Assembly: GCA_001778985.1 (NCBI GenBank)
Contig: MFIU01000002.1
Span: 139,930-203,929, forward strand
DNA length: 64,000 nucleotides
Direction of reading: 5' to 3'
DNA from: Candidatus Giovannonibacteria bacterium RIFOXYD1_FULL_48_21
Lineage (GTDB): Bacteria > Patescibacteriota > Minisyncoccia > JACPKW01 > UBA11713
The translations under genes and the position numbers were made by a program. Shown one piece after another: positions 6,905 to 41,442 of this stretch (the stretch's first letter is position 1; each line of letters starts with the position of its first letter). Below the pieces are notes generated by a model, which did not search any database, was not told the DNA's origin, and was given only the letters and a program-made list of their open reading frames with translations.

Positions 6905-6934
6905 AAAAACCCATAATAACTCAAACACCGCGCA

Positions 6935-15440: not shown

Positions 15441-16159
15441 GCGAGGCCGAGTTCTTGTATATTTTTCTCGGCCTCGGCCCAGTCTTTCAAATTGTCGATG
15501 TTGGCGCTGTATTTTTCTTCCATGACGTAGCCCACGACTTTATCGCCGTAAAAATTCGGTTCGTTTTCGTCAAACAAAAGTTCGCGCTTGAAAATATAGA
15601 CAGCACTGTTGTGAATATAGACTTTCGGCAAAAGCTGGCGCTGATAAACGCGCTTTCGCATCGGCTCCCCGCTCACAAAAAGTTTGACCAAACCTTTCTC
15701 GTCCATTTTAAGCGCCCACATCGGATTGAAGTGAGTCGGAATTTCAATCACGCTCACCACCGAGTCCGTTTTGGTTTTTTTGATAAGTTCGGCAGCTTCT
15801 TTGATATGCCAGGACTGGCGCAGGGGCGAGGTCGGTTGGAGAATTACGACGTAATTCGGAAAATAATTTTGATTGTCCCCGAGCCACTTGACCGCGTGCT
15901 GCATCACCGGCAGATGCGGGGTTTTGTCTTGGGCGAGTTCGGCCGGCCGCAGAAACGGAACTTCCACTCCCCACTTCTCGCCGACCGCCGCGATTTCTTT
16001 GTCGTCCGTGGACAAAATTATCCGGTCAAAAACACCGGAATTTTTCGCGGCCTCGATAGTCCAGGCGAGCAAGGGTTTCCCGCCAAGCTCTTTGATATTT
16101 TTTTTCGGGATGGATTTTGACCCTCCCCGCGCCGTGATAACTCCAAGAATCTTCGGCAT
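15437..16159 (-). CDS. acylneuraminate (nonulosonate) cytidylyltransferase, NeuA/LegF/PseF-like
   Basis: ITARGGSKSIPKKN P-loop-like CTP-transferase motif of the CMP-NulO synthetase family. Confidence 0.85.
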   Translation of the reverse strand: MPKILGVITARGGSKSIPKKNIKELGGKPLLAWTIEAAKNSGVFDRIILSTDDKEIAAVGEKWGVEVPFLRPAELAQDKTPHLPVMQHAVKWLGDNQNYFPNYVVILQPTSPLRQSWHIKEAAELIKKTKTDSVVSVIEIPTHFNPMWALKMDEKGLVKLFVSGEPMRKRVYQRQLLPKVYIHNSAVYIFKRELLFDENEPNFYGDKVVGYVMEEKYSANIDNLKDWAEAEKNIQELGLA

Positions 16160-23893: not shown

Positions 23894-24698
23894 CCACCAC
23901 TAAAGTCGAGCCGGTCATATATGAAGAGGCGTCCGAAGCCAGAAATAAAACCGCGCCGTTGTAATCGTGCGCTTCGGCCATCCGGCCAAGCATGGTCCGG
24001 CTTTCATATTCTCTGACGAACTCGGGGTCTTGACCCGCGTAAACTCCGCCAGGCACTAAAGTGTTAACCCTGATTCCGAAAGGCGCGGCGTATTCCGCAA
24101 GCCAGCGCGTGAAATTCAAAACTCCGGATTTGGCCACGCTGTATCCGACGGGTTTATAATATGTTTCGCCTTTTCTGCGCCGAAATTCATACATGGCTTG
24201 CGGCGGCGTGACCAAGCCGTAAGTCGAAGAAACATTGATAATGCTTCCGGAAGTTTTTTTCGCGGAACGAAAATTTCTAATAAAGGCTTGGGACATAAAA
24301 AACATCCCCTTAAGATGCGAATCCAGCATGGCATCCCAGACTTCCTCGGGATAATCTTCAAAGGGTCCGTTTTGCGCGGCAGGCGCCGACGGGTGAGAAT
24401 CAAGGCCAGCGTTATTTATAAGGATGGTGGGGACTCCGAGCTCGCCCGAAGCTTCGGCGAGCGCCTTTTCGACTTCGTTCTTCTTCGTCAAATCAATTTT
24501 ATAAATTTTCACCGGATGGCCGGATTTCAAAAGTTCTTCGAGTTTTGGATTTTTTTTGTCGGCAATATCAAAAACCGCCACGCTGGCTCCGGCCTGGGCC
24601 AACGTTTTTACGTATTCGCTTCCCAAATTCCCCGCGCCGCCGGTGACCACGGCCGTTCGGCCCGCAAGGTTGAACATTTCACCAACCTTAGAATCCAT
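23871..24698 (-). CDS. short-chain dehydrogenase/reductase (classical SDR)
   Basis: TGGAGNLG cofactor motif, NNAG, YSVAK catalytic motif. Confidence 0.85.
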   Translation of the reverse strand: MDSKVGEMFNLAGRTAVVTGGAGNLGSEYVKTLAQAGASVAVFDIADKKNPKLEELLKSGHPVKIYKIDLTKKNEVEKALAEASGELGVPTILINNAGLDSHPSAPAAQNGPFEDYPEEVWDAMLDSHLKGMFFMSQAFIRNFRSAKKTSGSIINVSSTYGLVTPPQAMYEFRRRKGETYYKPVGYSVAKSGVLNFTRWLAEYAAPFGIRVNTLVPGGVYAGQDPEFVREYESRTMLGRMAEAHDYNGAVLFLASDASSYMTGSTLVVDGGWTAR

Positions 24699-26912: not shown

Positions 26913-26950
26913 AAAGAGGAATGTCGCTCGACATTCCTCTTTATATTTTC
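26913..26950. terminator. bidirectional stem-loop terminator between convergent genes
   Basis: Perfect inverted repeat AAAGAGGAATGTCG-CT-CGACATTCCTCTTT followed by ATATTTT. Confidence 0.6.
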
Positions 26951-27582
26951 AGAATCAAATTTTTAATTTCCGATAAATTCGATACCAGCGGAAATTCTTT
27001 ATCTTTCCAGCCGTTCCAGTCGTTGGCCAGGCCGATGAAACGGCAGCCAACGGTCTTCGCTGCGGCGAGGTCATCCTCGCCGTCGCCCACCGCCAAAACT
27101 TCTTGAAGCAGAAAATTTTCTTTCTCTATTATTTTTTTAAGATTTTTAACCTTGCTTTCCGGCTCGCTCTGGCCGTAAATCTCTTCAAAAAAATCTCCAA
27201 TGCTGAGTCTTCCCGCAGTCTCCAAAAGAGCTTTCTCGGGTGTGGCAGAATTTAAATAGAGCCTAAAGCGCTGCTTCAGCTCTGAAAGAACCTCTTTGAC
27301 TCCGAGATTAAGCCCTAACGAAGAAATGCCACTTTGTACAAGCTCATTATATTTTTGGGCATGACTTAAAACAAGCGGCTCTATTTCCTCGGCAGATGTT
27401 CCGAGCCGTCTGAAAATTTCTCGAAGGATATCGTAACGGGTTTCCTTAATCTCTGTGAGAACATTTCTTATAAGCTCGCGCGAAGCTTCCTCCGGCTTAA
27501 AAACTTTAAACCAGGCCTCTTGCTTCAGGCGGTTCGAATCCACTAATACTCCATCAAAATCGAAAACAATAATTTTAATCAT
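26941..27582 (-). CDS. HAD-superfamily hydrolase/phosphatase
   Basis: IVFDFDGVLVDS motif I and C-terminal GDGEDD motif IV. Confidence 0.8.
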   Translation of the reverse strand: MIKIIVFDFDGVLVDSNRLKQEAWFKVFKPEEASRELIRNVLTEIKETRYDILREIFRRLGTSAEEIEPLVLSHAQKYNELVQSGISSLGLNLGVKEVLSELKQRFRLYLNSATPEKALLETAGRLSIGDFFEEIYGQSEPESKVKNLKKIIEKENFLLQEVLAVGDGEDDLAAAKTVGCRFIGLANDWNGWKDKEFPLVSNLSEIKNLILKI

Positions 27583-28289
27583 ATATGTCTTTTCATTAAA
27601 TTCTCCGCCAGAAGAAAATCAAATTCATTATCGATATTGATTGACTCCCAGTCCTCCATTAGGTATCCCAATATTTTCTCTCCGCTCATGGAGTGCTTCT
27701 CCAGAATTATCGAAGACCAAAAGGCGTTCATTGAGCCGTTATTCTGATAAACCGGAGGCAAAACCTGCCGCGGCGCGTCATGAGGGTCTTTATAAGAAAT
27801 GGGATTTTCCGAAAGCAGGGGTTTTAAAAATTCTCCTTCAAGCTTCCACATTTTGTAAGGAGTCTTGCAGGCTTTCGAAACGGCCCGCACTGAATCGGCT
27901 TTTGCCCTTCCGGCTGCCGTCAAAAGTTCGATACCCTCGTCAATGCGATTGACTCGGCGCAGAGGCGCGGTGGCCCTCAAATCCACCACCATTTCCGGAA
28001 GCTCTCCCCGCTCTTGAAGAAAGGCGAGATGATGCTCGAAAACCGGCAGATCCAGGGTGGAATCTTCGGCCAGCTCCTTGGGCCGCCGGAAAATTTCCGC
28101 CCCAGAGCTTTTTGCCGCCTCAGCTATTTTCTCGTCATCCGTGTTAACTATCACCCGCGAAATATATTTTGACTTTTTGGCCTCTTCAATCGTCCAGGCG
28201 ATGAGAGGCTTTCCGCAAAGCGGTCTTATATTTTTCCCGGGAAGACCTTTGGAGCCGCCGCGGGCCGGAATAATCGCGATAACTTTCAT
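27579..28289 (-). CDS. second nonulosonate cytidylyltransferase paralog (NeuA-like)
   Basis: IIPARGGSKGLPGKN motif. Confidence 0.85.
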   Translation of the reverse strand: MKVIAIIPARGGSKGLPGKNIRPLCGKPLIAWTIEEAKKSKYISRVIVNTDDEKIAEAAKSSGAEIFRRPKELAEDSTLDLPVFEHHLAFLQERGELPEMVVDLRATAPLRRVNRIDEGIELLTAAGRAKADSVRAVSKACKTPYKMWKLEGEFLKPLLSENPISYKDPHDAPRQVLPPVYQNNGSMNAFWSSIILEKHSMSGEKILGYLMEDWESINIDNEFDFLLAENLMKRHI

Positions 28290-29350
28290 TATAGAGAGGA
28301 TGGATAATAGGCGCGGTTCAGCACGCGCATGACCTCGAGACCGCGTTCAAATGAAAGCGGAGAATCTTTAAGCTTGATTTCGCCTGAAAGAAGTTTTTGA
28401 TAATGCAGGGCCTGCCGCCAGAAATCATCCGGCCGTTTTTTGGCAAAAACCTTTTCTACCAAATCTTCACCCTCGACCTGATAACGGACTAAGTCTCCTT
28501 CTGGAACGCCACGCAGATGCCATTCGACAAATCCTTTCTCACCCTGCAACCGCGCCCAGGTTTTGAAAGGATGGGTGAATAAATCCTGAATCACTCGACC
28601 CACTTTCCCTTCCTCGGTCTTAAACAAAAAGGCGATAAGCTCGTCGTATTCAGTTTCCTTCTCCTTTTTCATAGAGAAATCAGTCTTAACTTCTTTGAGC
28701 GCTCCCCAGCCAGCGACTTCGGCCAAGTACTGCCAAAGATGCAAGCCGTGAGAGTTTTCTCCTCCGGCCCCTCCCCCGCGGCGCCAGTAACCGAGGTAGG
28801 TTTCCGCTGGGCCGGAAAGCCAAGGGTGAGCCGCGAAAATAGACCGCCAATCTTCCCTGATTTCAACGTCCAGAGTCAGGATTTCTCCAAAAATTTTCTT
28901 TTTAAGGAGTTCGACTGCGGCTTCAACGCTTTCTGAAACCGCATAAATATATCCGACCGTCACCAAAATTTCCGGATATTTAGCCAAAGATTTTTCGAAT
29001 TCTTTCACTTCGCCGAGGTCAGGAGTCGAAAGAGGTTTTTCCAGATGAAGCAGTTTCGGTTTTTCTTCCAGTGCTTCCAAAGCGAGTTTCATCCTCACAT
29101 CCGGAGGAGTGCCTATCATGATAATGTCAAATCCCCCTTTCGGCTCTTTGCCAGGGGTAAAAAGTTTTATGGAATCGTCCCAAGCGCCATAGCGCTTGGG
29201 ATAGATGTCGTTTTTCATCCGCTCGAGCGCTTTGGGGTCGTTGTCAACCACACTGACTTCCCAGCCAACTCTCCGGCAAGATTGCGCCAGATGATTTCCA
29301 ACTGAACCTGCTCCAAGAATTTTAACTTTCACCCCGTTAGAAGTTTTCAT
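28289..29350 (-). CDS. Gfo/Idh/MocA-family oxidoreductase, copy 2 (near-identical paralog of 24688..25728)
   Basis: About 90% nt identity to copy 1 over several hundred bp at both ends. Start moved from the ORF-track 29488 to the ATG at 29350 (MKTSNGVKVKILGAGS), which aligns with the copy-1 start. Confidence 0.7.
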   Translation of the reverse strand: MKTSNGVKVKILGAGSVGNHLAQSCRRVGWEVSVVDNDPKALERMKNDIYPKRYGAWDDSIKLFTPGKEPKGGFDIIMIGTPPDVRMKLALEALEEKPKLLHLEKPLSTPDLGEVKEFEKSLAKYPEILVTVGYIYAVSESVEAAVELLKKKIFGEILTLDVEIREDWRSIFAAHPWLSGPAETYLGYWRRGGGAGGENSHGLHLWQYLAEVAGWGALKEVKTDFSMKKEKETEYDELIAFLFKTEEGKVGRVIQDLFTHPFKTWARLQGEKGFVEWHLRGVPEGDLVRYQVEGEDLVEKVFAKKRPDDFWRQALHYQKLLSGEIKLKDSPLSFERGLEVMRVLNRAYYPSSL

Positions 29351-30722
29351 AAAGTATTCTCTTAATATAATCCGCGGTTCTTCGGCCGGAAAGGCCGTCG
29401 GTAAATTCGACCTGCTCCTCGACCATCCTTTTTCTCCCCTCCCGATCCAAACTCGGGTCTTCCAAATATCTCCGGACGGCTTCGACAAGTTCTCCCATAT
29501 TCCAAACTCGCTTCACGCCGCCGGAAGCCTCGATGGATTTGTAATGGTCATGCTTCAAAAGCACGGAAACGCTGTGTTTGGGAGGCGTTTGGGGGTCGGC
29601 ATCAAACCTGACGTTGATTACGGGCTTGTCAAAAACCGCGGCATCAATGGAAAGCGTGGACATAGTGTTGATGGTAACATCGCTCCAGTAAAGAGAGTTC
29701 ATCAAGAGCTCAAAATCCTCCGGCGAGAATTCCCAGTCCTTGGTAGACATCTGAATATTTCTCACTGGAAAATATTGGGAGCAGGGCTTGGTGATGGTGA
29801 GATTTTGCGAGGGCCGAAATAATTTTTCATCAATCGGCGGGGTTCCGGGACGATATCTAACTAAAATTTGAGTGTCTTTGGGAAGGCGTCCGTCGTCTAT
29901 GGCGCTCGTAAGCTCATTTATGATTTTAAGGGAAGAAGAAGTATGAGAGTATAGAAACGGGGCGGCTAGAACGATTTTCCGTTCCGGGGGAATGCCCAGC
30001 ATCTTCAAAAATTTCTCCCGAGACTTCAGGGGCGGCTTGAAAAAAATGTCATAGTGCGGAATTCCTGAAACATAGATGTCCTCTTCGGGCATGCCAGCCA
30101 ATCTGACGGCAAGCTCCTTCATGATATGGGTGTGGACAATAAGTTTATCCGGCAAAAGCTGGATTACTCCTTTGGAGGTCAGGTTGTCCCAGGCTCGAAT
30201 CGTCCCCAGGACAAAAAATTTCTTTCTTTTGGCGGCGCGGAGAAAAATCCGGTCCGGAGGAAAAACAATGTCCGGGACAATGACCAAATCCGGCCGATAT
30301 CTCTCCAGAATCTTAACCACCCCGGGATCCAAGGCCACGAATCCGTCCAGAAAGCGGATTATGCTCCGGGGAAATTTAAAACCGGAAAACGCCAGATTGG
30401 CCGCGCGCTTGAGCAGAAATTTTCCGTAGTGCCCGTATTTCAAATAAGTCCACCATTGCTTGAGCCGGACCGAATCGGTATCCAAAAAATTAAAGGCGAT
30501 TGCGCACAAAATTCTTCCGAAGCGGGATTCGGAAACTATCTCCAGGGGCTCGAAAACGACGTTCGGCCTGCCAAACTCTTTTTGGTAGAAAGCGAGCTTG
30601 GAAGGAGGAATCACAATCACGAGCCGCAGGTTTGGCTCGCCGGTCAGCCCGGTATAGATGTAGGTATAAAAAAAATTCTTGGCCCGAATGCCGTTATAGA
30701 TTGGAAGCAGAATTGTTTTCAT
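29337..30722 (-). CDS. TagB/TagF-like (CDP-glycerol glycerophosphotransferase superfamily) GT-B protein, paralog 1 of 5
   Basis: Shares with four other ORFs the C-terminal motifs S..DAA.FDKPVI and DP.LD.EGR......EQ..F.DG.SG.R. Confidence 0.55.
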   Translation of the reverse strand: MKTILLPIYNGIRAKNFFYTYIYTGLTGEPNLRLVIVIPPSKLAFYQKEFGRPNVVFEPLEIVSESRFGRILCAIAFNFLDTDSVRLKQWWTYLKYGHYGKFLLKRAANLAFSGFKFPRSIIRFLDGFVALDPGVVKILERYRPDLVIVPDIVFPPDRIFLRAAKRKKFFVLGTIRAWDNLTSKGVIQLLPDKLIVHTHIMKELAVRLAGMPEEDIYVSGIPHYDIFFKPPLKSREKFLKMLGIPPERKIVLAAPFLYSHTSSSLKIINELTSAIDDGRLPKDTQILVRYRPGTPPIDEKLFRPSQNLTITKPCSQYFPVRNIQMSTKDWEFSPEDFELLMNSLYWSDVTINTMSTLSIDAAVFDKPVINVRFDADPQTPPKHSVSVLLKHDHYKSIEASGGVKRVWNMGELVEAVRRYLEDPSLDREGRKRMVEEQVEFTDGLSGRRTADYIKRILYENF

Positions 30723-31832: not shown

Positions 31833-32387
31833 TTACGGATTAAAATAAAGACGCAAATCCGCATCATAGGTCATCTCAGAAACCACCAGATATCTCACGT
31901 GATTTCTTATTTCAAAAAGTTCGACTAGAAAATCAATCGCATTACGGCATTCGTACGGAAAAACCCAGACGCTTTTCTGGAGTTCAAGAAATCCCAATTT
32001 CTTCATTTCCTGCCTAAGCGCATCACGGGCTGGTCTTTTTTTCTCGGGGATGTCAAAAATCACGATTCGCCATTTTCTATCCCAGCGGCTGGGCTTTGGA
32101 ATGGAAATATTATCGGGGTCATAACGAAACGCGTGCTTCTCGCCCAGTTTCGTCAGCACTACCGTAATCGACCCATCTTTTTCTTCTTTGAAATCCACCA
32201 AACGTTTATGCTTAAATTCGCGGACGATCCGACGGAGCGTAGTGCGCTCGATTTCACTCCAAGCTTTGGGAATGGATTTAATTATCCGAAAGTGGGTCCG
32301 GGGCGAGCGCGAAAGTCCGAGAGCAAGTCCAGAAGCGAGCAGTAGTAAAATCTTCTGCTTAACAGGGCTATAGAGAAATTTAGCCAT
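31833..32387 (-). CDS. small PaaX-family regulator-like protein (winged helix plus Cas2-like PaaX_C domain)
   Basis: WDRKWRIVIFDIPEKKRPARDALRQEMKKLGFLELQKSVWVFP closely matches the PaaX C-terminal domain pattern. Confidence 0.5.
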   Translation of the reverse strand: MAKFLYSPVKQKILLLLASGLALGLSRSPRTHFRIIKSIPKAWSEIERTTLRRIVREFKHKRLVDFKEEKDGSITVVLTKLGEKHAFRYDPDNISIPKPSRWDRKWRIVIFDIPEKKRPARDALRQEMKKLGFLELQKSVWVFPYECRNAIDFLVELFEIRNHVRYLVVSEMTYDADLRLYFNP

Positions 32388-32448: not shown

Positions 32449-33678
32449 TTATTTTATATCATGGAAACTTTTTTGCAAAGGAGGATTAACTTCAGCCAAA
32501 ATCTCGGTAATCTTTCGGCCGGCGTCTCCTTGGCCGAATCTCGAATTTGAAGGATAGCGGCCGTGAGCGAGCTGGGACAAGACGCTTTTTTTAATTGCTT
32601 CGAAATCCGCCGGCGCTTCCGTCACGTTTTCTCCCCGCTCCCGATTTTGCTGACGGGAGCCGACCAGCACCGCCGGCGTTCCCAGATACGCCCCCTCGCG
32701 GATGAAACTCGAAGAATTGCCCAGGGCGCAAGCGGCATTGGCCAAGGCCCGATAAAACCTGTCCGGATGAAGCTGCTTGGAGAAATAGACCTCGGCCGGC
32801 TTCGCGTTTTCATACCATTCGGCCAGTGTCCTCCCTACTCCCCTGGAACGCGCGTCAGGATTAGAGCCTATAACCAGAGCCGGCATTTTTAAATCCTCAA
32901 TCACTTTGAGGATTGTTTCGACCAGATTAAGATTTTCTTCCCTGGACTCGGTCGTAACCGGATGGGTAGTCACAAGTAGATAGGGCTTTTTAAGATTAAT
33001 GTATTCCGGAGAGCCGTCTTCAATTTCAGGAGAAAGGTCAATCTCTTTCAGGACATCGATGGATGGAGAACCGACCTTGAAGACAAAACGCGGGTCTTCG
33101 CCGAGCTGTAAAACCCGGCGCCGAGACTCGTCCGTGTTAGTAAAATGAATCTGGGCGAATTTCGTGATGGCGTGCCGAATGGATTCATCAATCGTCCCGG
33201 AAACGTCGCCGGCCTCGTTATGGGCGATGGGAATATTTAGAAAACTGGCGGCAATCGTGATGGCCATCATTTCGAATCGGTCGCCGTCCACAAACACCAG
33301 GTCGGGTTTAAGTTTACGCAAAGTATCCGTTAGGCTTATAATTCCCAATCCCACGGACTTGGCCATGGTAGCCGGAAGGCCGCCGTCCAGAAAGAAAGGA
33401 ACGTTCGCTCCGACCGAAAAACCGTCCGCCTTCATCTTGCGAATCACAAAATCGCCATCAAGCGCCCTTGATACCCGGGCTTTCAGATACCACGGAATAG
33501 CTTTAAGCCAATCTCTGGGCTCGGAGTGCTGCAGATTGGCGAAGAAGTAGCCGCGTGCGGCCTGAACGCCGGTGATGGTCTGGAGTTCGAGCTCGGGGTG
33601 ATTTGTAATCGCTTTCAGCACCGGTCGCAATCTCCCATAATTCGCGCGGTAGAAAATTGGCACTAATATTTTTTTCAT
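32449..33678 (-). CDS. second hydrolysing UDP-sugar 2-epimerase paralog (NeuC/LegG-like) with a ~40-aa insertion
   Basis: Epimerase_2 motifs (HNEAGDVSGTIDESIRHA, GNSSSFIREG). Confidence 0.85.
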   Translation of the reverse strand: MKKILVPIFYRANYGRLRPVLKAITNHPELELQTITGVQAARGYFFANLQHSEPRDWLKAIPWYLKARVSRALDGDFVIRKMKADGFSVGANVPFFLDGGLPATMAKSVGLGIISLTDTLRKLKPDLVFVDGDRFEMMAITIAASFLNIPIAHNEAGDVSGTIDESIRHAITKFAQIHFTNTDESRRRVLQLGEDPRFVFKVGSPSIDVLKEIDLSPEIEDGSPEYINLKKPYLLVTTHPVTTESREENLNLVETILKVIEDLKMPALVIGSNPDARSRGVGRTLAEWYENAKPAEVYFSKQLHPDRFYRALANAACALGNSSSFIREGAYLGTPAVLVGSRQQNRERGENVTEAPADFEAIKKSVLSQLAHGRYPSNSRFGQGDAGRKITEILAEVNPPLQKSFHDIK

Positions 33679-34700
33679 ATTTCTTGAAAATATGCTTCCC
33701 GCCCTCGTCGCAAGCGCGGACTTAGAATCTGAAGCGAGCCGTCCTTGATTTCGAAAAGAGGCTGTTTCCCTCCGGAAATATCGTTGGCATCAAGCCTCGC
33801 AAAAAGAACGGGTTCTTTCAGGGTGCGGTTAAAAGCCTTCTCCATAGTAAACCCGAATTTCATGCCCGCGGTTTTAGCCTTCTGGGCAGCTTCAGATGAA
33901 ACCGTAAAAGTGTGCGGAAAGGAAACCGCGCTAAATTTAGCCCGCGAGTCGCCTGTGACCTGCAACAAGACTCGTTTGGCATTTTTAAACTCGCTTTCCA
34001 TGGCTCTACTATCCAAAAGCGCGATAGGTTTATGCGTGTAGCCGTGCCATCCGAGATAAAAACGTTCGTGCAAACTTGCTGCCTGCTGCTTGGATACGTA
34101 AAAATTCTCACAGAATTTCTCCTCGCTGGCAACCAAAGATTGAAAAATGGAATCTATAATCTTTTCCCGAAGCTCCAAATCCAAAGAGCTCTTGTTGAGT
34201 AAAAACTTAAGGTGCGCCTCCTCCGGGTCGTCATAAGGATAGAGTTTCTCAATCTCGGCCGCGGATACCGGCGCGAAAGAATCAAAATTGAACGGCTTTC
34301 CGGAAAGCAGGGCGTAGTGGCGCCGAACCTCGCTAAAAAACTCGTCTGCCGACAGATGTGCTCGGCACCAATGAACTTTGTGCACGAATAACACCCGCCT
34401 TTCCAGATAAGGAAGGCCGTTAATAAAAAAAATCGCCGGTATCCCCATCTCATCCAAAATAGGCAGGGCCCGCTCATACTGGGACTTGAGCCCGTCGTCA
34501 AAAGTTATGGCGCAGCAATTTTCAGGAAGGGGCCTCTTTTTTTCCAGCGCCTCCAGAATTTCCCGCTGGCCGACGAATTTAAAAAATTTTCCGAGCTCCC
34601 TCAATTGCAGGCGAAACCTAGCGGGCGAAACCGGATAGATTCCTCTGGGGTACCTGTCTTCCTCGTCTATATAATGATAGTTAACTGCCAGAAAGTTCAT
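33675..34700 (-). CDS. polysaccharide deacetylase (CE4/NodB-like)
   Basis: ITFDDGLKSQYE...GIPAIFF NodB motifs 1-2. Confidence 0.7.
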   Translation of the reverse strand: MNFLAVNYHYIDEEDRYPRGIYPVSPARFRLQLRELGKFFKFVGQREILEALEKKRPLPENCCAITFDDGLKSQYERALPILDEMGIPAIFFINGLPYLERRVLFVHKVHWCRAHLSADEFFSEVRRHYALLSGKPFNFDSFAPVSAAEIEKLYPYDDPEEAHLKFLLNKSSLDLELREKIIDSIFQSLVASEEKFCENFYVSKQQAASLHERFYLGWHGYTHKPIALLDSRAMESEFKNAKRVLLQVTGDSRAKFSAVSFPHTFTVSSEAAQKAKTAGMKFGFTMEKAFNRTLKEPVLFARLDANDISGGKQPLFEIKDGSLQILSPRLRRGREAYFQEI

Positions 34701-35373
34701 TGGAAAGAAAAGATAATACCTCTTCGGCGACTTCTTCCGGCTCTCGAGCCATCGTCTTATAAATGGACGGCAAGTTTTTAATCAGGTCGGTATTCACCGA
34801 GCCCGGAGAAACTATATTCACTCTGATTCCTTTTCCGCTTAATTCTGACGCGAGCGCCCGGCTTAAACCCACCAGACCATATTTTGCAGAAATATAACCG
34901 CTCAGGCCGGACGGCGGGGCGCCAACGGTAACGTCGCTCGCGATATTAATAATGTCCCCGGAGCGTTTTTCAAGCATAAAAGGCAGAACCGCTTTGATGG
35001 CGTTGTAAGCGCCGTGAATCTGAACTTCCAGATGCCGCTCAAAATCATCCCACCCCAAATCAGCAAAACGTTTGTAATCAATAGACACTCCGGCGTTGTT
35101 AATGAGGGCGTCAATCCTGCCGAATTTGTTCAAAACAGCTTCGACCATTTCCCGAACCTCTTCGGCTTTGGTTACGTCGGCTTTGAAAGTCAGGGCTTCT
35201 CCTCCGAATTTCTGTATTTCTTTTTCAACCTTTTCCGCCTCTATGCCGTTTTTAAGATAATTTATCGCCACCCGAGCGCCGTGTCGGGCCGAAGCCAGCG
35301 CGATGGCCTTGCCGAGGCCGCGGCTCGCGCCAGTAATCAAAACAACTTTTCCGTCCAAGTTTTTCATATCCAT
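34681..35373 (-). CDS. 3-oxoacyl-ACP reductase-like SDR (FabG-like)
   Basis: ITGASRGLG, NNAG, YISAKYG motifs. Confidence 0.85.
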   Translation of the reverse strand: MDMKNLDGKVVLITGASRGLGKAIALASARHGARVAINYLKNGIEAEKVEKEIQKFGGEALTFKADVTKAEEVREMVEAVLNKFGRIDALINNAGVSIDYKRFADLGWDDFERHLEVQIHGAYNAIKAVLPFMLEKRSGDIINIASDVTVGAPPSGLSGYISAKYGLVGLSRALASELSGKGIRVNIVSPGSVNTDLIKNLPSIYKTMAREPEEVAEEVLSFLSNELSGS

Positions 35374-35374
35374 C

Positions 35375-35782
35375 TTATATAATTTTTACCAAAGCCCTGC
35401 CCTCTACCGCCACTCGGCCTTCGGAATCAAAAATCTCCATCTTGATTTCCACAATCTTTGTTGATTCAGATTTGCTGACCACGGTTCCTTTTACCTTAAA
35501 CTTTTCCCCCGCCAAAATCGGCCGATGAAAATTCAAGTTTTGAGAAAGATACAAGGAATCTTTTCCGGGAATAACCATCCCGACTAAATAAGAAAATTTA
35601 GAAGCGACGAGAAGGCCGTGCGCCAGGCGTCCCTTATAGCCCTTGGTTCGGGCAAATCCATCGTCCAGGTGCAGGGGACTCTGGTCTCCGGAGAGTTTCG
35701 CGAAAGCCTTAATATCTTCTTCGGAAAAACTGCACAAAACCGGCTCGGTTTCATATCCTACGTTAATGTCTTCAAATTTCAT
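35375..35782 (-). CDS. MaoC-like hot-dog fold dehydratase/enoyl hydratase
   Basis: 135-aa hot-dog domain with the conserved SGDQSPLHLD motif. Confidence 0.8.
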   Translation of the reverse strand: MKFEDINVGYETEPVLCSFSEEDIKAFAKLSGDQSPLHLDDGFARTKGYKGRLAHGLLVASKFSYLVGMVIPGKDSLYLSQNLNFHRPILAGEKFKVKGTVVSKSESTKIVEIKMEIFDSEGRVAVEGRALVKII

Positions 35783-35791
35783 AAATAAAAT

Positions 35792-36754
35792 TTAATAGGC
35801 GCGGTCGCGATCTCCGTCGGCCTTAACCACGAACCAATCCATGGGCGGCTCTTGGTCTGGGCGGTCAACGTGTTTATACGTGAAGTTGAGGGTCAGCCTT
35901 TTTCTATCAACCGGCAAAATAAAAATCGGCGGGTCCGTACTGACTTTACGATTCGCCGCGTGAAAACCGGCTTCCTGAAAGGCTTCACCATACCTTGATG
36001 GAAAAGAAAAAAAATCAATAAAATCCGCTTTAGCGTCTTTGGCAAAGTTAACTGCCTTTTTTACGAGCCTTGCCGCGGCTTCCGGGCCGCCGATAAGGTC
36101 GACAATGCGGCAAGCCGTAAGCTCCTCCCCTTTCTCGATTCTTAAAATGATATAACCCTCTAACCCGCCAAAAATCTGATATTTAATTTTTGGATTATCA
36201 ATAAAACGCCAATTCAGATAAGCCGCCGAACGGTCAACCGTCGCGGCATAATCATGGCTCAACGTCTCCCAAGCCTTGTCCCACTCCGGGCCAAACTTAT
36301 CTATGGCGGCAATATCCGAGTCCTCGGCAAATCCGCGGTTTTCCTTTAAGTCCCTCACCCAGCGCGTCATCAGAGCTTCCTCGCTCCAGCCGCAAAATTT
36401 AAAGACGGGCGCGGAGGGAGGACTGAAACCCGTGGTATAGAGAATATCAAAATATTTCTCGGCTTCGCGAACCAAGAGCACTCCGGCTCCGCGCGAACGT
36501 AAATCTTCGAACACAATCAGACAGCCCAGAAACGCCGCGTTGAACAGTCTTCCGCGGACTCGAAATTTATACCCAATCAGCCCCAAGTGCCCGACGATCT
36601 CGCTATTTTTTTCGAGCAGTAAATTGGAATAACCAGGAAATTGCCATTTCAAATATTCTTTCTCGCTCATGATGTGGCCGGGTTTATAAACTTTCTTAAA
36701 AAAATCTATCAAGGCCGGAATGTCATTTTCCTTAGCTAGTCTTACGCTGTACAT
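35792..36754 (-). CDS. GNAT-family acyltransferase with C-terminal extension
   Basis: N-terminal GNAT pattern (LIVFEDLRSRGAGVLLV, acyl-CoA/ACP binding loop). Confidence 0.5.
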   Translation of the reverse strand: MYSVRLAKENDIPALIDFFKKVYKPGHIMSEKEYLKWQFPGYSNLLLEKNSEIVGHLGLIGYKFRVRGRLFNAAFLGCLIVFEDLRSRGAGVLLVREAEKYFDILYTTGFSPPSAPVFKFCGWSEEALMTRWVRDLKENRGFAEDSDIAAIDKFGPEWDKAWETLSHDYAATVDRSAAYLNWRFIDNPKIKYQIFGGLEGYIILRIEKGEELTACRIVDLIGGPEAAARLVKKAVNFAKDAKADFIDFFSFPSRYGEAFQEAGFHAANRKVSTDPPIFILPVDRKRLTLNFTYKHVDRPDQEPPMDWFVVKADGDRDRAY

Positions 36755-36758
36755 AGCT

Positions 36759-37004
36759 CTAAAGTTTTATCCCCTTATTGACGAGGTAGCGTTTAATATC
36801 CCCGAGATTTTTTGCTTCCATGGTCTCGTCGACTGTGAACTGAACTTTAAATTCTTTCTCCAGTTCGGAGATAAAAATAAGGTAATTCATGGAGTCCCAG
36901 TCCGGAATCGTGCTTGGCGACATTTCATCATTAATTTCCTGGGCGGAAACTTTGAAAATTTTTTGGATGATGGGTATCAGCTTATCCATATCGTTTTTAT
37001 CCAA
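36759..37004 (-). CDS. acyl carrier protein
   Basis: 81 aa with phosphopantetheine attachment motif DWDSMNYLIFISELEKEF (DSx core). Confidence 0.8.
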   Translation of the reverse strand: MDKNDMDKLIPIIQKIFKVSAQEINDEMSPSTIPDWDSMNYLIFISELEKEFKVQFTVDETMEAKNLGDIKRYLVNKGIKL

Positions 37005-38023
37005 TCCGGCTTCAGGTTCGCGTTTTTCAAATCAAAACGGCCGCCTTCGAAATACTTTTCCAAAAACTCTTTGGCCGGCTGGTTCTTTTCCGTCTCTTTG
37101 AATAAAATTCTTAGCTCTTTGGCATTATTCTCTCTGGCTCTTTGGGCCATAAAATGTAAAAATGCTTCCTCGATTCCCCGCCCCAAGGCTCGGCAACTCG
37201 CGAGCAAGGACTCTATCAGCCATTCTTCCGAATCCTTATTAATCGAGGCAAAAGCTATCACGCCGTAATCTCCGAATTTATCGCGCGCGGCCGCGTGAAA
37301 TATGGAATGGGACGGTTCAGCGATCCGCCGCGAAATTTCATTCTCTGACATGGGTTTTTTATTCGTGTTAAATTGATTGGTTTTCTCGGTAAGTTGCGCC
37401 AACCTCGAGAGGCAGGAGGAATCGTCTTGGTAGCAATGGACTTCTATCTCCAAGCTTTTCAGGAAATCTTCTTTAGCCCCGTAATTATTTTCCGCGGCCT
37501 TGCGCAGACGTTCCGTAACGTATAAATTGCCGCGCATTTTGTCTTCATCAGTAGTGACCCCGCCCTTGAAATACGGCAAAGTCAATAAAAATTTTGCGTA
37601 TTTTTCGGGGTCCTGGGGCAAATCGGGGGTTTCTACTTCCGGCAAGGCATTTCGCATAACGGCGCGGTTTACCGGGTCATCGTCCAAAAACACCAGAGAG
37701 TCCAAACCGATATTCAGCTCCTTCGCGATTTCGCGCATGTTGTCCGGTTTCTCATTCCAATTAATGCGGAGGGACGCGAAATTATTTTCCTTCAAAACCA
37801 TATTCGGGTGGCGGCGAATCACCGCCATGGCGTCTTCATAATTATTCCGGCTGTTGAGCGCTAAAATAATTCCGCGATTATGCAAATCCAGAATGGCCTG
37901 CTGAAAAGCGACAAAGCCGCGGCCGGATGCATCCCAGCCCAGCTTGATGCCGTCTAATCCCTCCTCGCCCACCACCCCTCCCCACAGGGTGTTATCTAAA
38001 TCAAGAACTAAACATTTTTTCAT
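36977..38023 (-). CDS. FkbH-like HAD-IIIC domain protein (ACP-loading phosphatase/acyltransferase type)
   Basis: LVLDLDNTLWGG HAD motif I, LALNSRNN, LFLDD motifs, plus a C-terminal acyltransferase-like half typical of FkbH. Confidence 0.65.
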   Translation of the reverse strand: MKKCLVLDLDNTLWGGVVGEEGLDGIKLGWDASGRGFVAFQQAILDLHNRGIILALNSRNNYEDAMAVIRRHPNMVLKENNFASLRINWNEKPDNMREIAKELNIGLDSLVFLDDDPVNRAVMRNALPEVETPDLPQDPEKYAKFLLTLPYFKGGVTTDEDKMRGNLYVTERLRKAAENNYGAKEDFLKSLEIEVHCYQDDSSCLSRLAQLTEKTNQFNTNKKPMSENEISRRIAEPSHSIFHAAARDKFGDYGVIAFASINKDSEEWLIESLLASCRALGRGIEEAFLHFMAQRARENNAKELRILFKETEKNQPAKEFLEKYFEGGRFDLKNANLKPDWIKTIWIS

Positions 38024-38027
38024 ATTA

Positions 38028-38378
38028 TCATATAGTTAAAATTACAAACGCCAGCGCCCAATCTTTCGCGTGCGATAAGGACGCAAAAATTTTCAAATCC
38101 TGACATCCATTAATCCGCAGGCGCGGCGTGCCGGATTTATAAATAATTTCAATGTTTTTTAAATCTGTGGCGCGGCCCAGCGCTTTAAGGCCGGCTTCTT
38201 TGGCGCAAAATCTGGCGGCAAAATGCGGATAGGGGTCGGCTTTCGCCGTGCAGTACTCCAACTCCTTTTTTGTAAATATCTTCCGGTAGAAAGGCTTATT
38301 TTCTTTATACGGCAGGTTCCTGAAACGAGCAATGCTTTCGATATCGGCGCCAATCCCAACAATAACCATATTAAACAA
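38028..38378 (-). CDS. acpS: holo-ACP synthase (4'-phosphopantetheinyl transferase)
   Basis: IVGIGADIESIARF and FAAKEAGLKALG signatures. Confidence 0.8.
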   Translation of the reverse strand: MFNMVIVGIGADIESIARFRNLPYKENKPFYRKIFTKKELEYCTAKADPYPHFAARFCAKEAGLKALGRATDLKNIEIIYKSGTPRLRINGCQDLKIFASLSHAKDWALAFVILTI

Positions 38379-39750
38379 ATTGCAAGATATACTTCCCTAT
38401 GCGCTCGCCGGATTTTCCGTCCGTAAATTTGCACTGCTCTTGGACCAGACGCGCTCTCCCCTCCTTATCCAAGGAAGGATTTTCCAAGTAGCGCCTGACC
38501 GCGCTTACTAATTCCTCGGGGCTCGCCACCAATCTTACGCCGTCGGTATCTAAAACTTTTTTATAATGCGCTATCTCTGAATACTGCCTGAAATAGCTGA
38601 ATAAAGATTCTGGCTTTAATTCAAAATTTATATTTATCACCGGGCGGCCGAATATGGCCGCGTCTATACTCAGGCTGGAAGCGTAACAAATCAAAAGCGA
38701 CATATGATAAAGAATGTCGCGCAGGTGGGCCAGCTCGGAAGTATCCATATCCCAATCGTCTCCCCTTTGGTAGTACGCTATCTTGGAAGAAAAACGCACT
38801 CCAGAGTAATCATATTTCAAATGCGGCCTCTTTTTGAGCTCGGCTTCGTCTATCACGTCATAAGGATGGAAACGCACTAAAATCTCGACATCTTCGCCAA
38901 AACTTCCTTCTTTATTCAATGAATACAGCAGGTCAATCATGTCCCAGTCGGAATCGCTATACGAACTGCCGTGCGGAGCATATACGATAATTTTCTTTCG
39001 CGGGTCCAGGCCGAAGCGCTGGCAAAACGTCTCGCGCGCCAAAACCTCCGGACGAAAATAAATATCGTACTGCGGTATTCCGCCCACAAAAATGTCTTCC
39101 TCTTTGACGCCGTTATAATGAATAACTTCGCCCTTGACTATGTCATTAAATACAACTAATTTGTCGGGCAAAAGTCTCAAAACGCACCGGGCCGTAACTT
39201 TGTCCCAAGAATTGATAAAACCGATAACTTTCACGTCGTGATGCTTGGCCGCTCGCAAAAAGTGCACCTCGGGTTCGAAAAAGATATTGGCCAAGAAAAC
39301 CAAATCGGGTTTATATCTTTCAAAAAAACTATCATAGGCGTGATTCGTTACCAAATAGTAATCCAGCCGGCGCGCCAAGAGCAGAAAATATTTGCGGGCA
39401 ATCAAGCGATTTACCAAAAGTCCAAACCAATATCTGAAATGTCTCCAGACTCCCTTTCGGGACTTAAAGCGGACTAGGCGTCTTAAGTCAGTGGTTTTGG
39501 TGCGCAAAAGCGCGAATTTCAGCCACTGAAAGAATCGGTCTAAACCTAGAATTGGGATAGGCGGAGCGACCTCATATAAAATTCTTTCGCTTTCTCCAAA
39601 TTCTTTTTTATGGTATGCCGCCCGCTCCGGGTCTTTGGTAAAAATAACGACGCGCGTGTCCGGCTCTTTCAAGATGGTTTCAAAGATTGACGAACGCAGG
39701 ACATTTTTCGTTTCAACTCCCTCAAAACTGGTGACAAAAATCGTCTTCAT
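38371..39750 (-). CDS. TagB/TagF-like GT-B protein, paralog 2 of 5
   Basis: Same N-terminal MKTIFVTSF...RN and C-terminal SIDAAIFGRPVI / NPSLDKEGRARLVQEQCKFTDGKSGERIGKYI motifs. Confidence 0.55.
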   Translation of the reverse strand: MKTIFVTSFEGVETKNVLRSSIFETILKEPDTRVVIFTKDPERAAYHKKEFGESERILYEVAPPIPILGLDRFFQWLKFALLRTKTTDLRRLVRFKSRKGVWRHFRYWFGLLVNRLIARKYFLLLARRLDYYLVTNHAYDSFFERYKPDLVFLANIFFEPEVHFLRAAKHHDVKVIGFINSWDKVTARCVLRLLPDKLVVFNDIVKGEVIHYNGVKEEDIFVGGIPQYDIYFRPEVLARETFCQRFGLDPRKKIIVYAPHGSSYSDSDWDMIDLLYSLNKEGSFGEDVEILVRFHPYDVIDEAELKKRPHLKYDYSGVRFSSKIAYYQRGDDWDMDTSELAHLRDILYHMSLLICYASSLSIDAAIFGRPVININFELKPESLFSYFRQYSEIAHYKKVLDTDGVRLVASPEELVSAVRRYLENPSLDKEGRARLVQEQCKFTDGKSGERIGKYILQFV

Positions 39751-39870: not shown

Positions 39871-41442
39871 TCACACTCCGCCGGTCAAGTCCTGCTCCTC
39901 AATGTCCTCCAGCTGGTGCTGGCCCCAGTTTAAAAGATAGGTTTTTCGCTCATCTCTCGGCAACTTGGCGATGGAAGGGTCAAGATAAAAAGAGTCTTCT
40001 TTATGGTTGGCAGTGGAAATTTCCTCAAAGACCGCGCCAGCGTCGGTTCCGAAGCTATGCACCACTCCTCTTGGAATCCAGAGCATGTCTCCGGGATATA
40101 AAATTTTTTTCCGTCCCTGAACTTCCACTTCCAAAACTCCGGAAAGAACCTGAAAAGTTTCATCTTTAAGTTTATGGTAATGCTCGGGATTGAATTGACC
40201 CGAAAGTTGAACCAAAATTTTCTTCGCATACTCCCGGTTAAAGCATTCTATGATAGCCGCGCCCACCTCTTGAAACCGCTCGATGCCGTAATGGTGCGAA
40301 AGCTCCACGGAAAAATCATGGCCGACCGGAACTTTCGCCTCGTTCAGCATCCCTTTGATGGCGTGGATGGAATGATAGACAATTTCTTTTTTAGATTTCG
40401 TGTCGGGCCGGAGCGAGGCCGAAAGAGCTTCGTTGGGATGGTAATCCCGGTCGGCCGCGAGTCCGGCCAGAAAGCGTCCCGAAACAAGCTGCCCTTCCTG
40501 CAAAGGCATGGCGAAAAATACGTCTTCATAATTCAGGGTTTCTCCGGCTTTTATCTCCCGCTTGGTCCAGACTCCTCTCACAAAAGTTCTTAAATCCTCG
40601 GCCTCTTTTTCTGGAATTTCCCGCTCGCCCCTTTCCCCGCAGGCCTCGACGGCTTCCCTCCAAGCTCCGAGCCAGGCGCGCACTTGACCGGGATTGGCGG
40701 AATAAGCGTTCAATTTTATCTGGTCAGTTTCAAGGCCCACGTGTTTTTCAAAAATCCTGGCGCCTTTGGCGTAAGCCAGGCGAATGGCATTCAGATTTGA
40801 AGGTTCCTCGTGAGTGGAAAACCCGATGACGATTCCGGGGTAGCGATTTTTCAAAATTTCAATCTGGTTTAGAGAAAACTTGTCGTTCGGGGTGGGATAG
40901 ATGGAAACGCAGTGCAAAAGCGCGAAATGAACGCCCCGCTTCTGGAAGAAGCTCACGATTTTATCGATGTCGCGGATGACGAGTCCGCCGACGGAAACGA
41001 TAACCGGTTTTCCGGTCTGACTCGCCCGCTCCAGCAACGGCCAATCTTGATTGGAAGGAGAACCGATTTTAATCACTCCAACCCCCAATCTTTCAATCTT
41101 ATCCACCGAGGGTTCGTCAAACGGGGTCGCGACGGTCAAAAGCCCCTCGTTCTTAATCTCGCTCGTCAACCGAGAAAATTCTTCTTCAGAAAGGCGGGTT
41201 TCCAAAAACCGCTTCATATAGTGGCTGTTGGAAAATTTTTCATGTTCGGGGTGAATGATGGCGTCCAAATCGCGAAATTGAAGCTTGGCGGCCGCTCGGA
41301 TTTTAAATTCCCGGGCGATCTCCCCCATTTCGCGAATTATCCGGAGTCCATGCTCTAAAGAGCCCTGATGGTTGTTGGCGAGCTCAAAAATGAATAAATT
41401 TTCGAAATCGAATTTTCGCTCGTTTCTCATTGTGGTCCGCAT
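39871..41442 (-). CDS. NeuB-family nonulosonic acid synthase fused to a C-terminal cupin (PMI/sugar-isomerase-like) domain
   Basis: N-terminal NeuB TIM barrel (FIFELANNHQGS...KLQ) and SAF region; last ~120 aa carry a cupin_2 motif HYHKLKDETFQVLSGVLEVEVQG...PGDMLWIPRGVVHSF. Confidence 0.75.
   Translation of the reverse strand: MRTTMRNERKFDFENLFIFELANNHQGSLEHGLRIIREMGEIAREFKIRAAAKLQFRDLDAIIHPEHEKFSNSHYMKRFLETRLSEEEFSRLTSEIKNEGLLTVATPFDEPSVDKIERLGVGVIKIGSPSNQDWPLLERASQTGKPVIVSVGGLVIRDIDKIVSFFQKRGVHFALLHCVSIYPTPNDKFSLNQIEILKNRYPGIVIGFSTHEEPSNLNAIRLAYAKGARIFEKHVGLETDQIKLNAYSANPGQVRAWLGAWREAVEACGERGEREIPEKEAEDLRTFVRGVWTKREIKAGETLNYEDVFFAMPLQEGQLVSGRFLAGLAADRDYHPNEALSASLRPDTKSKKEIVYHSIHAIKGMLNEAKVPVGHDFSVELSHHYGIERFQEVGAAIIECFNREYAKKILVQLSGQFNPEHYHKLKDETFQVLSGVLEVEVQGRKKILYPGDMLWIPRGVVHSFGTDAGAVFEEISTANHKEDSFYLDPSIAKLPRDERKTYLLNWGQHQLEDIEEQDLTGGV

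Follow-up and report, generated by a model that had tools for sequence, protein, structure and literature searches.

We analysed a 64,000-nucleotide stretch of contig MFIU01000002.1 from Candidatus Giovannonibacteria bacterium RIFOXYD1_FULL_48_21 (the window) and focused on a gene cassette built around an acyl carrier protein (ACP) and embedded among genes for nonulosonic acids (NulOs). At positions 34681-38378, we identified six back-to-back minus-strand open reading frames (ORFs), in agreement with the coordinates and domain assignments of the six consecutive genes (AcpS, FkbH, ACP, GNAT, MaoC and SDR) reported in a first-pass annotation of this DNA. That annotation had bounded the cassette at 34681. 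However, the adjoining deacetylase gene overlaps the SDR stop by 20 nt and is itself overlapped by 4 nt by a NeuC-like gene; the working unit runs downstream past 34681 and includes the CE4 deacetylase and the NeuC-type epimerase. The genes of this unit are as follows.

38028-38378, minus strand: AcpS-type 4'-phosphopantetheinyl transferase, 116 residues from a TTG start (PF01648, TIGR00556)
36977-38023, minus strand: short-form FkbH-domain HAD-IIIC enzyme, 348 residues (TIGR01686, TIGR01681)
36759-37004, minus strand: dedicated ACP, 81 residues from a TTG start (PF00550)
35792-36754, minus strand: tandem double-GNAT acyltransferase, called GNAT320 here, 320 residues (Acetyltransf_9, Acetyltransf_1)
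35375-35782, minus strand: MaoC/PhaJ-type (R)-specific hot-dog hydratase/dehydratase (PF01575)
34681-35373, minus strand: classical FabG-like SDR ketoreductase (PF00106)
33675-34700, minus strand: CE4 polysaccharide-deacetylase-family protein without a signal peptide (PF01522)
32449-33678, minus strand: NeuC/LegG-type hydrolysing UDP-HexNAc 2-epimerase (TIGR03568)

Public gene calls place the AcpS start at ATG 38369 (113 residues) and the ACP start at ATG 36989 (76 residues). The spacing of the genes ranges from -20 to +9 nt, with gaps of 1-9 nt among the first six, and the unit was therefore regarded as one translationally coupled block. The cassette gene order was found again in independent Patescibacteria contigs, with proteins 53-86% identical, which argues that the arrangement is conserved and not due to chance. 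All seven enzymes retain intact domains and catalytic motifs. The window DNA matches a groundwater metagenome scaffold at 100% identity and GCA_003510385.1 at 99.99%. A promoter and terminator scan returned sites that were fewer than, or no more numerous than, those in shuffled sequences and thus does not set the operon ends; in the window, the Rfam scan identified no RNA family and the tRNA scan no tRNA.

The first-pass annotation had proposed a dedicated ACP route to an unusual acyl substituent on a NulO or amino sugar, and this proposal is supported by the domain scores, genomic context, cross-phylum co-occurrence and gene fusions described below. We assign a probability of about 0.6 to the reading that the cassette is a self-sufficient carrier-protein pathway that exchanges the N-acyl group on a NulO precursor, with a C3 acyl group derived from FkbH and ACP being moved by GNAT320 to a deacetylated amine of the NulO pathway.

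The carrier protein and its probable loader

The AcpS protein matched PF01648 (E 1.9e-17, 63.7 bits against a cutoff of 25) and TIGR00556 (62.3 bits against 45.35) and carries a GADIE motif at residues 10-14. It scored below the cutoffs of all species-level AcpS equivalogs; these two models and its single domain of ~115 residues place it among the phosphopantetheinyl transferases, and in this capacity it would convert the apo-ACP of the cassette into holo-ACP. The carrier qualifies as an ACP by PF00550 (28.8 bits against 20.8) and by a phosphopantetheine site, Ser37, in a DSM motif. Because it reached 16-27 bits with the AcpP models of NCBIfam, far below their cutoffs of 66-84, it does not represent a housekeeping AcpP. 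The ACP orthologues in Jorgensenbacteria and Giovannonibacteria loci show 51% identity.

The loader belongs to the FkbH family by TIGR01686 (311.9 bits against 146.65) and to the HAD-IIIC family by TIGR01681 (70.5 bits against 35.75), so that all three models with which the first-pass annotation had suggested checking the cassette (TIGR01686, PF00550 and PF01648) scored above their cutoffs. It is composed of a HAD-IIIC phosphatase domain followed by a GNAT-like C-terminal transferase domain, and the HAD half matches PDB 3slr (BF1531) with an E-value of 5.8e-42. Residues D8 and D10 of the DLDNT motif and C277 of SCRALGRG (SCRxxGRG) are invariant across 21 homologues, and the closest homologues belong to Candidatus Giovannonibacteria, Jorgensenbacteria, Sungbacteria and "Patescibacteria group" metagenome-assembled genomes (MAGs). 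Going by work on OzmB, the conserved C-terminal cysteine is presumably the acyl-carrying residue. Conversion of 1,3-bisphosphoglycerate to glyceryl-ACP by FkbH and a standalone ACP is the accepted function of the FkbH family (PMC7489565). We would expect the cassette FkbH likewise to load glyceryl from 1,3-bisphosphoglycerate onto its ACP.

For comparison, we retrieved 80 genome loci with an FkbH profile (7 Patescibacteria, 9 archaeal and 64 other bacterial). Co-occurrence was counted within 5 kb of FkbH by phmmer with few queries on stop-to-stop ORFs; the counts are lower bounds, and generic SDR matches among them may take in unrelated neighbours. A small ACP was present after FkbH in 68 of the 80 loci, spread over many bacterial phyla and archaea. 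AcpS was located directly upstream of FkbH in all seven Patescibacteria loci, in four of the nine archaeal loci, several of which are cut at a contig end, and in 2/64 of the other bacterial loci. Since Patescibacteria, to our knowledge, generally lack fatty-acid synthesis, a cassette carrying its own AcpS fits this host. Cassettes of FkbH and ACP, some with MaoC or AcpS, were also observed in Nanoarchaeota, Micrarchaeota, Woesearchaeota, Nitrososphaerales/Thaumarchaeota and a Promethearchaeota (Asgard) MAG (L015, L018, L021-L024, L027, L030, L041); archaea are generally held to be without ACP.

Fatty-acid synthesis likewise employs ACP, AcpS, a FabG-like SDR and a hot-dog dehydratase, and FkbH with an ACP is best known from polyketide synthase (PKS) clusters (PMC7489565). 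We weighed whether the cassette could be a fragment of housekeeping type II fatty-acid synthesis, or a polyketide or tetronate precursor cassette providing methoxymalonyl-ACP or glyceryl-ACP to a PKS, and consider either scarcely credible. Among the scanned ORFs of the 64-kb window, which were all but about a dozen short ones, we identified no ketosynthase (FabH/B/F), no FabD malonyl transferase and no enoyl reductase, and neither the cassette nor its immediate surroundings contain FabI, a FabH-like protein, a dehydrogenase of the FkbK/FkbI type or a methyltransferase of the FkbG type. Together with the low AcpP scores of the ACP, this led us to reject a type II fatty-acid synthesis locus, which the first-pass annotation had named as the alternative to its own proposal. 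A polyketide, tetronate or methoxymalonyl precursor cassette was rejected on the absence of a condensing enzyme and of FkbK/I/G-type genes. The neighbours here are GNAT, MaoC, SDR and CE4 genes, with no acyl-CoA dehydrogenase, and do not correspond to the methoxymalonyl-ACP pathway (FkbG/H/I/J/K). The block is also surrounded by ~50 kb of glycan genes, which include NulO synthases to either side of it, and the host lineage is Patescibacteria.

GNAT320 and its deacetylase partner

GNAT320 scored 25.5 bits with Acetyltransf_9 (cutoff 25) and 23.7 bits with Acetyltransf_1 (cutoff 20.7), had no NCBIfam match and features motif A as RSRGAG at residues 86-91. Its AlphaFold model, built with 31 homologues (pLDDT 88.8, pTM 0.88), is composed of two tandem GNAT domains. 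A phmmer search of the PDB gave insignificant matches to N-myristoyltransferases (NMTs; E 0.2) and hence no membership of NMT or Eis at the sequence level, which made a fold search necessary. By Foldseek against the PDB, the model matched NMTs, Eis and the uncharacterised Eis-like proteins 2ozg and 2hv2, with E-values of ~1e-13 to 1e-12 and TM-scores of 0.55-0.66. Score, motif A and fold place GNAT320 in the GNAT superfamily as a tandem double-GNAT protein of the NMT/Eis-like type. The matched NMT, Eis and Eis-like GNATs all act on amines. The catalytic base of NMT is its C-terminal carboxylate; in the GNAT320 family, the C-terminal residues K311, D313, D315, D317 and R318 are invariant (K-A-D-G-D-x-D-R, followed by two residues and the stop), and it is conceivable that this C-terminus plays an NMT-like role as base.

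The strongest evidence that GNAT320 draws its acyl group from an FkbH-loaded carrier comes from Rosetta-stone gene fusions. In P0209 (1068 residues), FkbH_N, FkbH (249-575), ACP (630-701) and GNAT320 (717-1066) form a single chain; P0193 joins an FkbH C-terminus, an ACP and GNAT320, and in P0204, P0213 and P0167 an ACP is followed by GNAT320. P0218 is a fusion of an AMP-binding ligase with GNAT320, and a CMP-transferase-like gene precedes P0204. These arrangements point to GNAT320 as an acyl-ACP-dependent N-acyltransferase that would move a C3 acyl group to a sugar amine. Its close family is small (33 proteins at E <= 1e-3 in a word-indexed search). At E <= 1e-30, an exhaustive profile search recovered 343 cluster representatives, a number that rose to 4810 at E <= 1e-10. 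The family would represent uncharacterised, apparently acyl-ACP-dependent N-acyltransferases with hundreds of close representatives and thousands of more distant ones.

GNAT320-family genes and a CE4 deacetylase occur together in the window, in L008, L009 and L010, in L016 from Omnitrophota and in L089 from Planctomycetales, i.e., in at least six independent contexts from three phyla. In all four close-family contigs examined (the window, L008, L009 and L010), the deacetylase is accompanied nearby by NeuC, NeuB or a CMP-transferase. L010 contains a distant family member, P0153, for which an AMP-binding ligase replaces FkbH and ACP while the deacetylase, NeuC, NeuB and CMP-transferase are kept.

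The deacetylase of the window belongs to the CE4 family (PF01522, E 1.9e-13, 50.9 bits against 23.1), with D68-D69 and H219/H223 present, and shows weak PDB matches to PgaB. About 150 residues separate its Asp-Asp pair (68-69) from the HxxxH motif (219-223), far more than in canonical CE4 enzymes, which suggests an inserted subdomain that may fit a small-molecule substrate. We expect this enzyme to strip an N-acetyl group so that the amine can take the new acyl group. The adjoining NeuC-type epimerase (TIGR03568, 309.5 bits against 235.9) probably supplies a substrate of the 2-acetamido-mannose type.

The first-pass annotation had allowed for either an N- or an O-acyl group. Given the NMT/Eis-like fold of GNAT320 and its recurrent pairing with a CE4 deacetylase, N-acylation is favoured and O-acylation has lost ground. 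The latter would place the acyl group on a hydroxyl of a sugar or of the finished glycan, with the deacetylase acting as an independent tailoring enzyme, and it draws on the sister loci of the cassette. The AcpS-FkbH-ACP-MaoC-SDR core of Patescibacteria was found in two output versions. One version, represented by L004 (Jorgensenbacteria), L006 (Giovannonibacteria), L011 and L014, combines the core with an MBOAT and an adjacent unannotated partner of ~300-320 residues. The other, represented by the window, L008 (GNAT identity 53%) and L009, combines it with GNAT320 and the CE4 deacetylase among NulO genes. Two MBOAT-version loci have the following coordinates.

L004, 12490-14979: MBOAT version, Jorgensenbacteria
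L006, 7296-9783: MBOAT version, Giovannonibacteria

The partner proteins in these two loci (321 residues in L004, 298 in L006) are not GNAT320 homologues and have no Pfam match. Overall, an MBOAT lies near FkbH in 13 of the 80 loci. The MBOAT-version loci look like a Dlt-like, carrier-protein-fed O-acylation system that would use a hydroxy acid instead of D-alanine, so that the acyl-ACP appears to serve O-acylation elsewhere. For the window itself we consider O-acylation improbable: no MBOAT was found among its scanned large unannotated ORFs, the GNAT320 fold matches are to amine acyltransferases, and the pairing of GNAT320 with a cytoplasmic CE4 enzyme recurs in the independent contexts listed above.

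In L009 (5822-9280), a B12-binding radical-SAM protein and a Methyltransf_24-like protein of 252 residues replace the SDR, a variant that hints at C-methylation of, or some other change to, the C3/C4 acyl group. The 252-residue protein recurs beside NeuB in the FkbH loci of Clostridium moutaii (L019) and Acetivibrio (L048).

The acyl group and the proposed pathway

The MaoC protein is a hydratase-family member by PF01575 (53.2 bits against 27), and its best PDB match is the PhaJ enzyme of A. caviae (1iq6, 2.4e-23), with the catalytic Asp and His corresponding to D33 and H38 in GDQSPLH. The SDR matched PF00106 with 177 bits and the PF08659 KR model with 44 bits, and carries the motifs of a classical FabG-like SDR (TGASRGLG at 14-21, NNAG at 92, S146, Y160 and K164). 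Its best NCBIfam matches are of the 3-hydroxybutyrate dehydrogenase, 3-oxoacyl-ACP reductase and acetoacetyl-CoA reductase types, all under their equivalog cutoffs; with 169.4 bits against 297.75 for TIGR01830, it does not belong to the FabG equivalog. Near FkbH, MaoC was found in 20 of the 80 loci, an SDR in 21 and both in 10, and in L043 (Pacificispira) and L057 (Geminicoccaceae) MaoC and SDR form one fused protein adjoining FkbH and ACP. FkbH-type loading modules have been encoded as the rule "1,3-bpg + ACP -> D-lactate-ACP" (PMC7901079). We predict that MaoC dehydrates glyceryl-ACP to enolpyruvoyl/pyruvoyl-ACP and that the SDR reduces pyruvoyl-ACP to lactyl-ACP.

The first-pass annotation had offered glyceroyl or 3-hydroxybutyryl as the acyl group. 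An unusual C3 acyl group is retained in our analysis; since MaoC and an SDR accompany FkbH and ACP, lactyl (2-hydroxypropanoyl) appears the likeliest product, ahead of glyceroyl and 3-hydroxybutyryl. Within the overall N-acyl-exchange scheme, we put lactyl specifically at slightly short of even odds. Lactoyl, glyceryl and hydroxybutyryl substituents have all been recorded on prokaryotic NulOs (PMC8157484).

An N-glyceroyl group as in the Pse5Am7Gra of Tannerella forsythia would require that glyceryl-ACP is used unchanged and that MaoC and SDR act elsewhere, for instance on the sugar or, in the case of MaoC, as an editing or thioesterase-like hot-dog protein. N-glyceroyl pseudaminic acid is documented in that organism, where its genetic basis was called "a major challenge" (PMC5378307). 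FkbH-ACP-deacetylase-GNAT320 blocks without MaoC or SDR exist in L016 and L089, and together with the FkbH-ACP-GNAT320 fusion they indicate that the transferase family can plausibly accept glyceryl. Against this, MaoC and SDR of the window lie inside the ACP block, between GNAT320 and the deacetylase, with gaps of 1-9 nt; they recur beside FkbH and ACP across phyla, even as a fused protein; and a MaoC gene follows the genes of the fusions P0209 and P0204. We consider N-glyceroyl unlikely for this cassette.

By analogy with PhaJ and FabG or 3-hydroxybutyrate dehydrogenase, the cassette might instead make 3-hydroxybutyryl or another acyl group of four or more carbons. The MaoC protein is indeed nearest to a short-chain PhaJ (1iq6), the NCBIfam matches of the SDR include 3-hydroxybutyrate dehydrogenase and acetoacetyl-CoA reductase, and 3-hydroxybutyryl NulOs are known (PMC8157484). 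Nevertheless, this outcome is very improbable because we identified nothing here that could make a C4 chain: neither the cassette nor the scanned ORFs of the window include a thiolase or ketosynthase, the sole loader, FkbH, is a C3 loader, and all of the SDR matches in question fall under their equivalog cutoffs.

From the observed gene content, motifs, fold, operon packing, co-occurrence and fusions, we infer the chemical steps, the acyl identity and the acceptor of an N-acyl exchange that would proceed as follows. AcpS would make the dedicated ACP holo in a Patescibacteria host that is not expected to have fatty-acid synthesis or a housekeeping phosphopantetheinyl transferase. FkbH would then take a C3 unit from 1,3-bisphosphoglycerate, with Asp8 and Asp10 dephosphorylating it and Cys277 carrying the glyceryl group before its passage to the ACP. 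The PhaJ-like MaoC would eliminate the 3-hydroxyl, and the resulting enol would tautomerise to pyruvoyl-ACP, which the FabG-like SDR, probably NADPH-dependent, would reduce to lactyl-ACP, a product that would also arise if the enol double bond were reduced directly. Meanwhile, the NeuC-type epimerase would make a 2-acetamido-mannose-type sugar, and the cytoplasmic CE4 enzyme would remove the N-acetyl group from it or from a later intermediate. The NMT/Eis-like double GNAT would then acylate the freed amine with the group borne by ACP. Finally, a NeuB-cupin synthase, a CMP-transferase and Glyphos_transf-like transferases, whose genes are listed below, would assemble a 5-N-lactyl nonulosonate and put it in place. 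In Leg- or Pse-type sugars, the 7-amino group arises as a free amine and requires no deacetylase. We place the new acyl group on N5 because only the N-acetyl derived from UDP-GlcNAc must come off before replacement.

Several observations weigh against this scheme. GNAT320 only just exceeds its Pfam GNAT cutoffs. The FkbH_N domain (PF21211), which long homologues such as L019 and P0209 carry, is absent from the 348-residue cassette FkbH, which starts at the HAD motif; membership of the FkbH domain family stands, since PF21211 is not part of TIGR01686, but the identity of its substrate is extrapolated. The SDR reaches none of the FabG equivalog cutoffs, and its C-terminus is short. In 10 of the 80 FkbH loci, MaoC occurs without a detectable SDR (7/80, plus 3/80 with MBOAT), so that MaoC may serve another role or the product there may be pyruvoyl. 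CE4 enzymes mostly act on polymers, and gene context is what points to a monosaccharide-level role for this one. There are three NeuB-like synthases in the window, and the choice of the modified nonulosonate follows gene adjacency.

The surrounding glycan locus and related systems

The window represents one long glycan locus, which also encodes a GDP-mannose dehydratase, aminotransferases, glycosyltransferases, an ABC exporter and a protein with a Wzy_C/O-antigen-ligase domain. Downstream of the cassette unit lie a second Glyphos_transf-like protein, a Gfo/Idh/MocA-like oxidoreductase, a CMP-NulO cytidylyltransferase and a HAD phosphatase. The genes closest to the proposed pathway, and their counterparts elsewhere in the window, are as follows.

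38371-39750, minus strand: Glyphos_transf/BFO_1060-like GT-B protein, immediately upstream of AcpS (PF04464, NF046086)
39871-41442, minus strand: NeuB-family nonulosonate synthase with a C-terminal cupin (PF03102, PF07883)
27579-28289, minus strand: CMP-nonulosonate cytidylyltransferase, PseF/NeuA-like (TIGR03584; PF02348 in public calls)
26941-27582: HAD phosphatase, after the cytidylyltransferase
16811-17833, 19894-20985 and 39871-41442: NeuB-like synthases
18728-19897 and 32449-33678: NeuC-like epimerases
15437-16159 and 27579-28289: cytidylyltransferases
29337-30722, 38371-39750, 57801-59222, 60636-62015 and 62012-63364, minus strand: five paralogous proteins of ~460 residues with weak Glyphos_transf/BFO_1060-family matches

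That one 64-kb locus of a reduced-genome bacterium has three NeuB-like synthases, along with two clear NeuC-type epimerases and two CMP-transferases, implies two or three different sialic-acid-like sugars. The GT-B protein at 38371-39750 (PF04464, E 1.1e-14; NF046086, 55 bits, under cutoff) is, from its context, a candidate transferase for the modified sugar, and its homologues adjoin GNAT320-family genes in L008, L009, L010 and L094. It is one of the five paralogues, which may serve as nonulosonate transferases or as the polymerases for a teichoic-acid-like polymer. The cytidylyltransferase at 27579-28289 scored 128.7 bits with TIGR03584, under cutoff. The NeuB-cupin protein matched PF03102 with 142 bits and PF07883 with 40.7 bits; its cupin, with a weak D-lyxose-isomerase-like match, stands where a SAF/antifreeze-like domain is usual, and the fusion is kept in L008 (2963-4516), a Giovannonibacteria-type contig.

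Other features of the locus were observed that lie apart from the cassette. A transketolase/DXS-like protein of 650 residues (21941-23893, minus strand) is flanked by SDRs at 23871-24698 and 20982-21944; it adjoins the same SDR and NeuB genes in L008 and may transfer a two-carbon unit to a sugar. A PaaX_M-like protein of 184 residues (31833-32387, minus strand) with a weak Cas2-like stretch below cutoff interrupts the glycan operon midway; it is kept in L001 and L002 and may have a local regulatory role. The low-coordinate edge of the locus holds a REP-associated tyrosine-transposase-like ORF (14097-14744, minus strand; below cutoff) and ORFs at 1433-2569 (plus strand), 8821-9873 (minus strand) and 4478-6928 (minus strand), for a GH18 chitinase-like protein, a peptidoglycan-binding-repeat protein and SecA.

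In the literature on FkbH with lactyl, bryostatin, Patescibacteria or glycans, we found no paper describing the cassette. Each part comes from a known family, and the logic joins three familiar elements, namely glyceryl loading by FkbH and ACP, conversion to lactyl by a DH/KR pair, and de-N-acetylation with re-N-acylation from acyl-ACP in the manner of NodB/NodA or LpxC/LpxD; the combination, the GNAT320 family, the use on a nonulosonate and the distribution in Patescibacteria and archaea were not found described there. Nonulosonic sugars bear many N-acyl groups, and few of the genes installing the non-acetyl ones are known; the cassette offers a concrete seven-gene route, and the marker set of FkbH and ACP, with or without MaoC and SDR, plus CE4 and GNAT320 could predict such decorations from sequence. 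The FkbH-ACP module is spread over Patescibacteria, DPANN, Thaumarchaeota, Asgard archaea and many bacterial phyla. We tentatively suggest, at rather less than even odds, that FkbH-ACP(-MaoC-SDR) is a widespread module diverting 1,3-bisphosphoglycerate to C3 hydroxy-acyl decoration of surface glycans, with either CE4 and a double GNAT (N-acyl exchange) or an MBOAT (Dlt-like extracytoplasmic O-acylation) as output. If so, it would be the main or only use of ACP in lineages without fatty-acid synthesis and in archaea generally, and would supply the genes so far missing behind N-glyceroyl and N-lactoyl sialic-acid-like sugars. The cassette indicates that Patescibacteria, regarded as lacking fatty-acid synthesis, have retained an ACP and the enzyme that activates it for work on surface glycans, a matter of relevance to the way in which these episymbionts appear to hosts and to phages.

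The cassette resembles the FkbH-ACP systems of polyketide and tetronate pathways in its FkbH, which exceeds the TIGR01686 cutoff and carries DxDxT and the C-terminal Cys, and in the small standalone ACP adjoining it. It differs from them in having a short-form FkbH and no PKS, FabH-like tetronate enzyme or FkbK/I/G genes, and its acyl group would go to a sugar amine instead of a polyketide. A parallel in chemistry is provided by the DH-KR-FkbH-ACP loading modules of trans-AT PKS systems, such as that of bryostatin BryA, which reportedly has a D-lactyl starter. The same four activities and the same predicted lactyl-S-carrier are found in both; however, the cassette uses separate small proteins, with a single MaoC/PhaJ hot-dog in place of a PKS DH, and lacks a downstream ketosynthase, GNAT320 being the likely enzyme to off-load the acyl group.

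Among glycosylation systems, the flagellin-glycosylation locus of C. jejuni includes the ACP genes acpP2 and acpP3. It also contains an FkbH-domain gene, cj1302 (PMC7099621). Like the window, it is a nonulosonate glycosylation locus with an FkbH-domain gene, and NulOs with glyceroyl-type N-acyl groups are found in C. jejuni and T. forsythia (Pse5Am7Gra in the latter); the genes there are not known to be tied biochemically to the modification. DltABCD D-alanylation is comparable with the sister loci, in which the core, MBOAT and adjacent partner would form a carrier-protein-fed membrane O-acyltransferase. In contrast, no MBOAT is present among the scanned ORFs of the window, and the module would use FkbH instead of the adenylating DltA as loader and a hydroxy acid instead of D-alanine.

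The overall logic resembles that of NodB/NodA/NodF and LpxC/LpxD, in which a GlcNAc-derived amine is de-N-acetylated and then re-N-acylated from acyl-ACP, with NodB being a cytoplasmic CE4 deacetylase and NodF a dedicated ACP. The likeness, a CE4 deacetylase plus an acyl-ACP donor, is one of logic only: the transferase of the cassette is a double GNAT and has neither the NodA/LpxD fold nor membership of the NodA family, its C3 acyl group would come from glycolysis and not from fatty-acid synthesis, and its acceptor is probably a sugar of the nonulosonate pathway. The pairing of a deacetylase with an acyl-ACP-dependent N-acyltransferase points to replacement of the GlcNAc-derived N-acetyl group.

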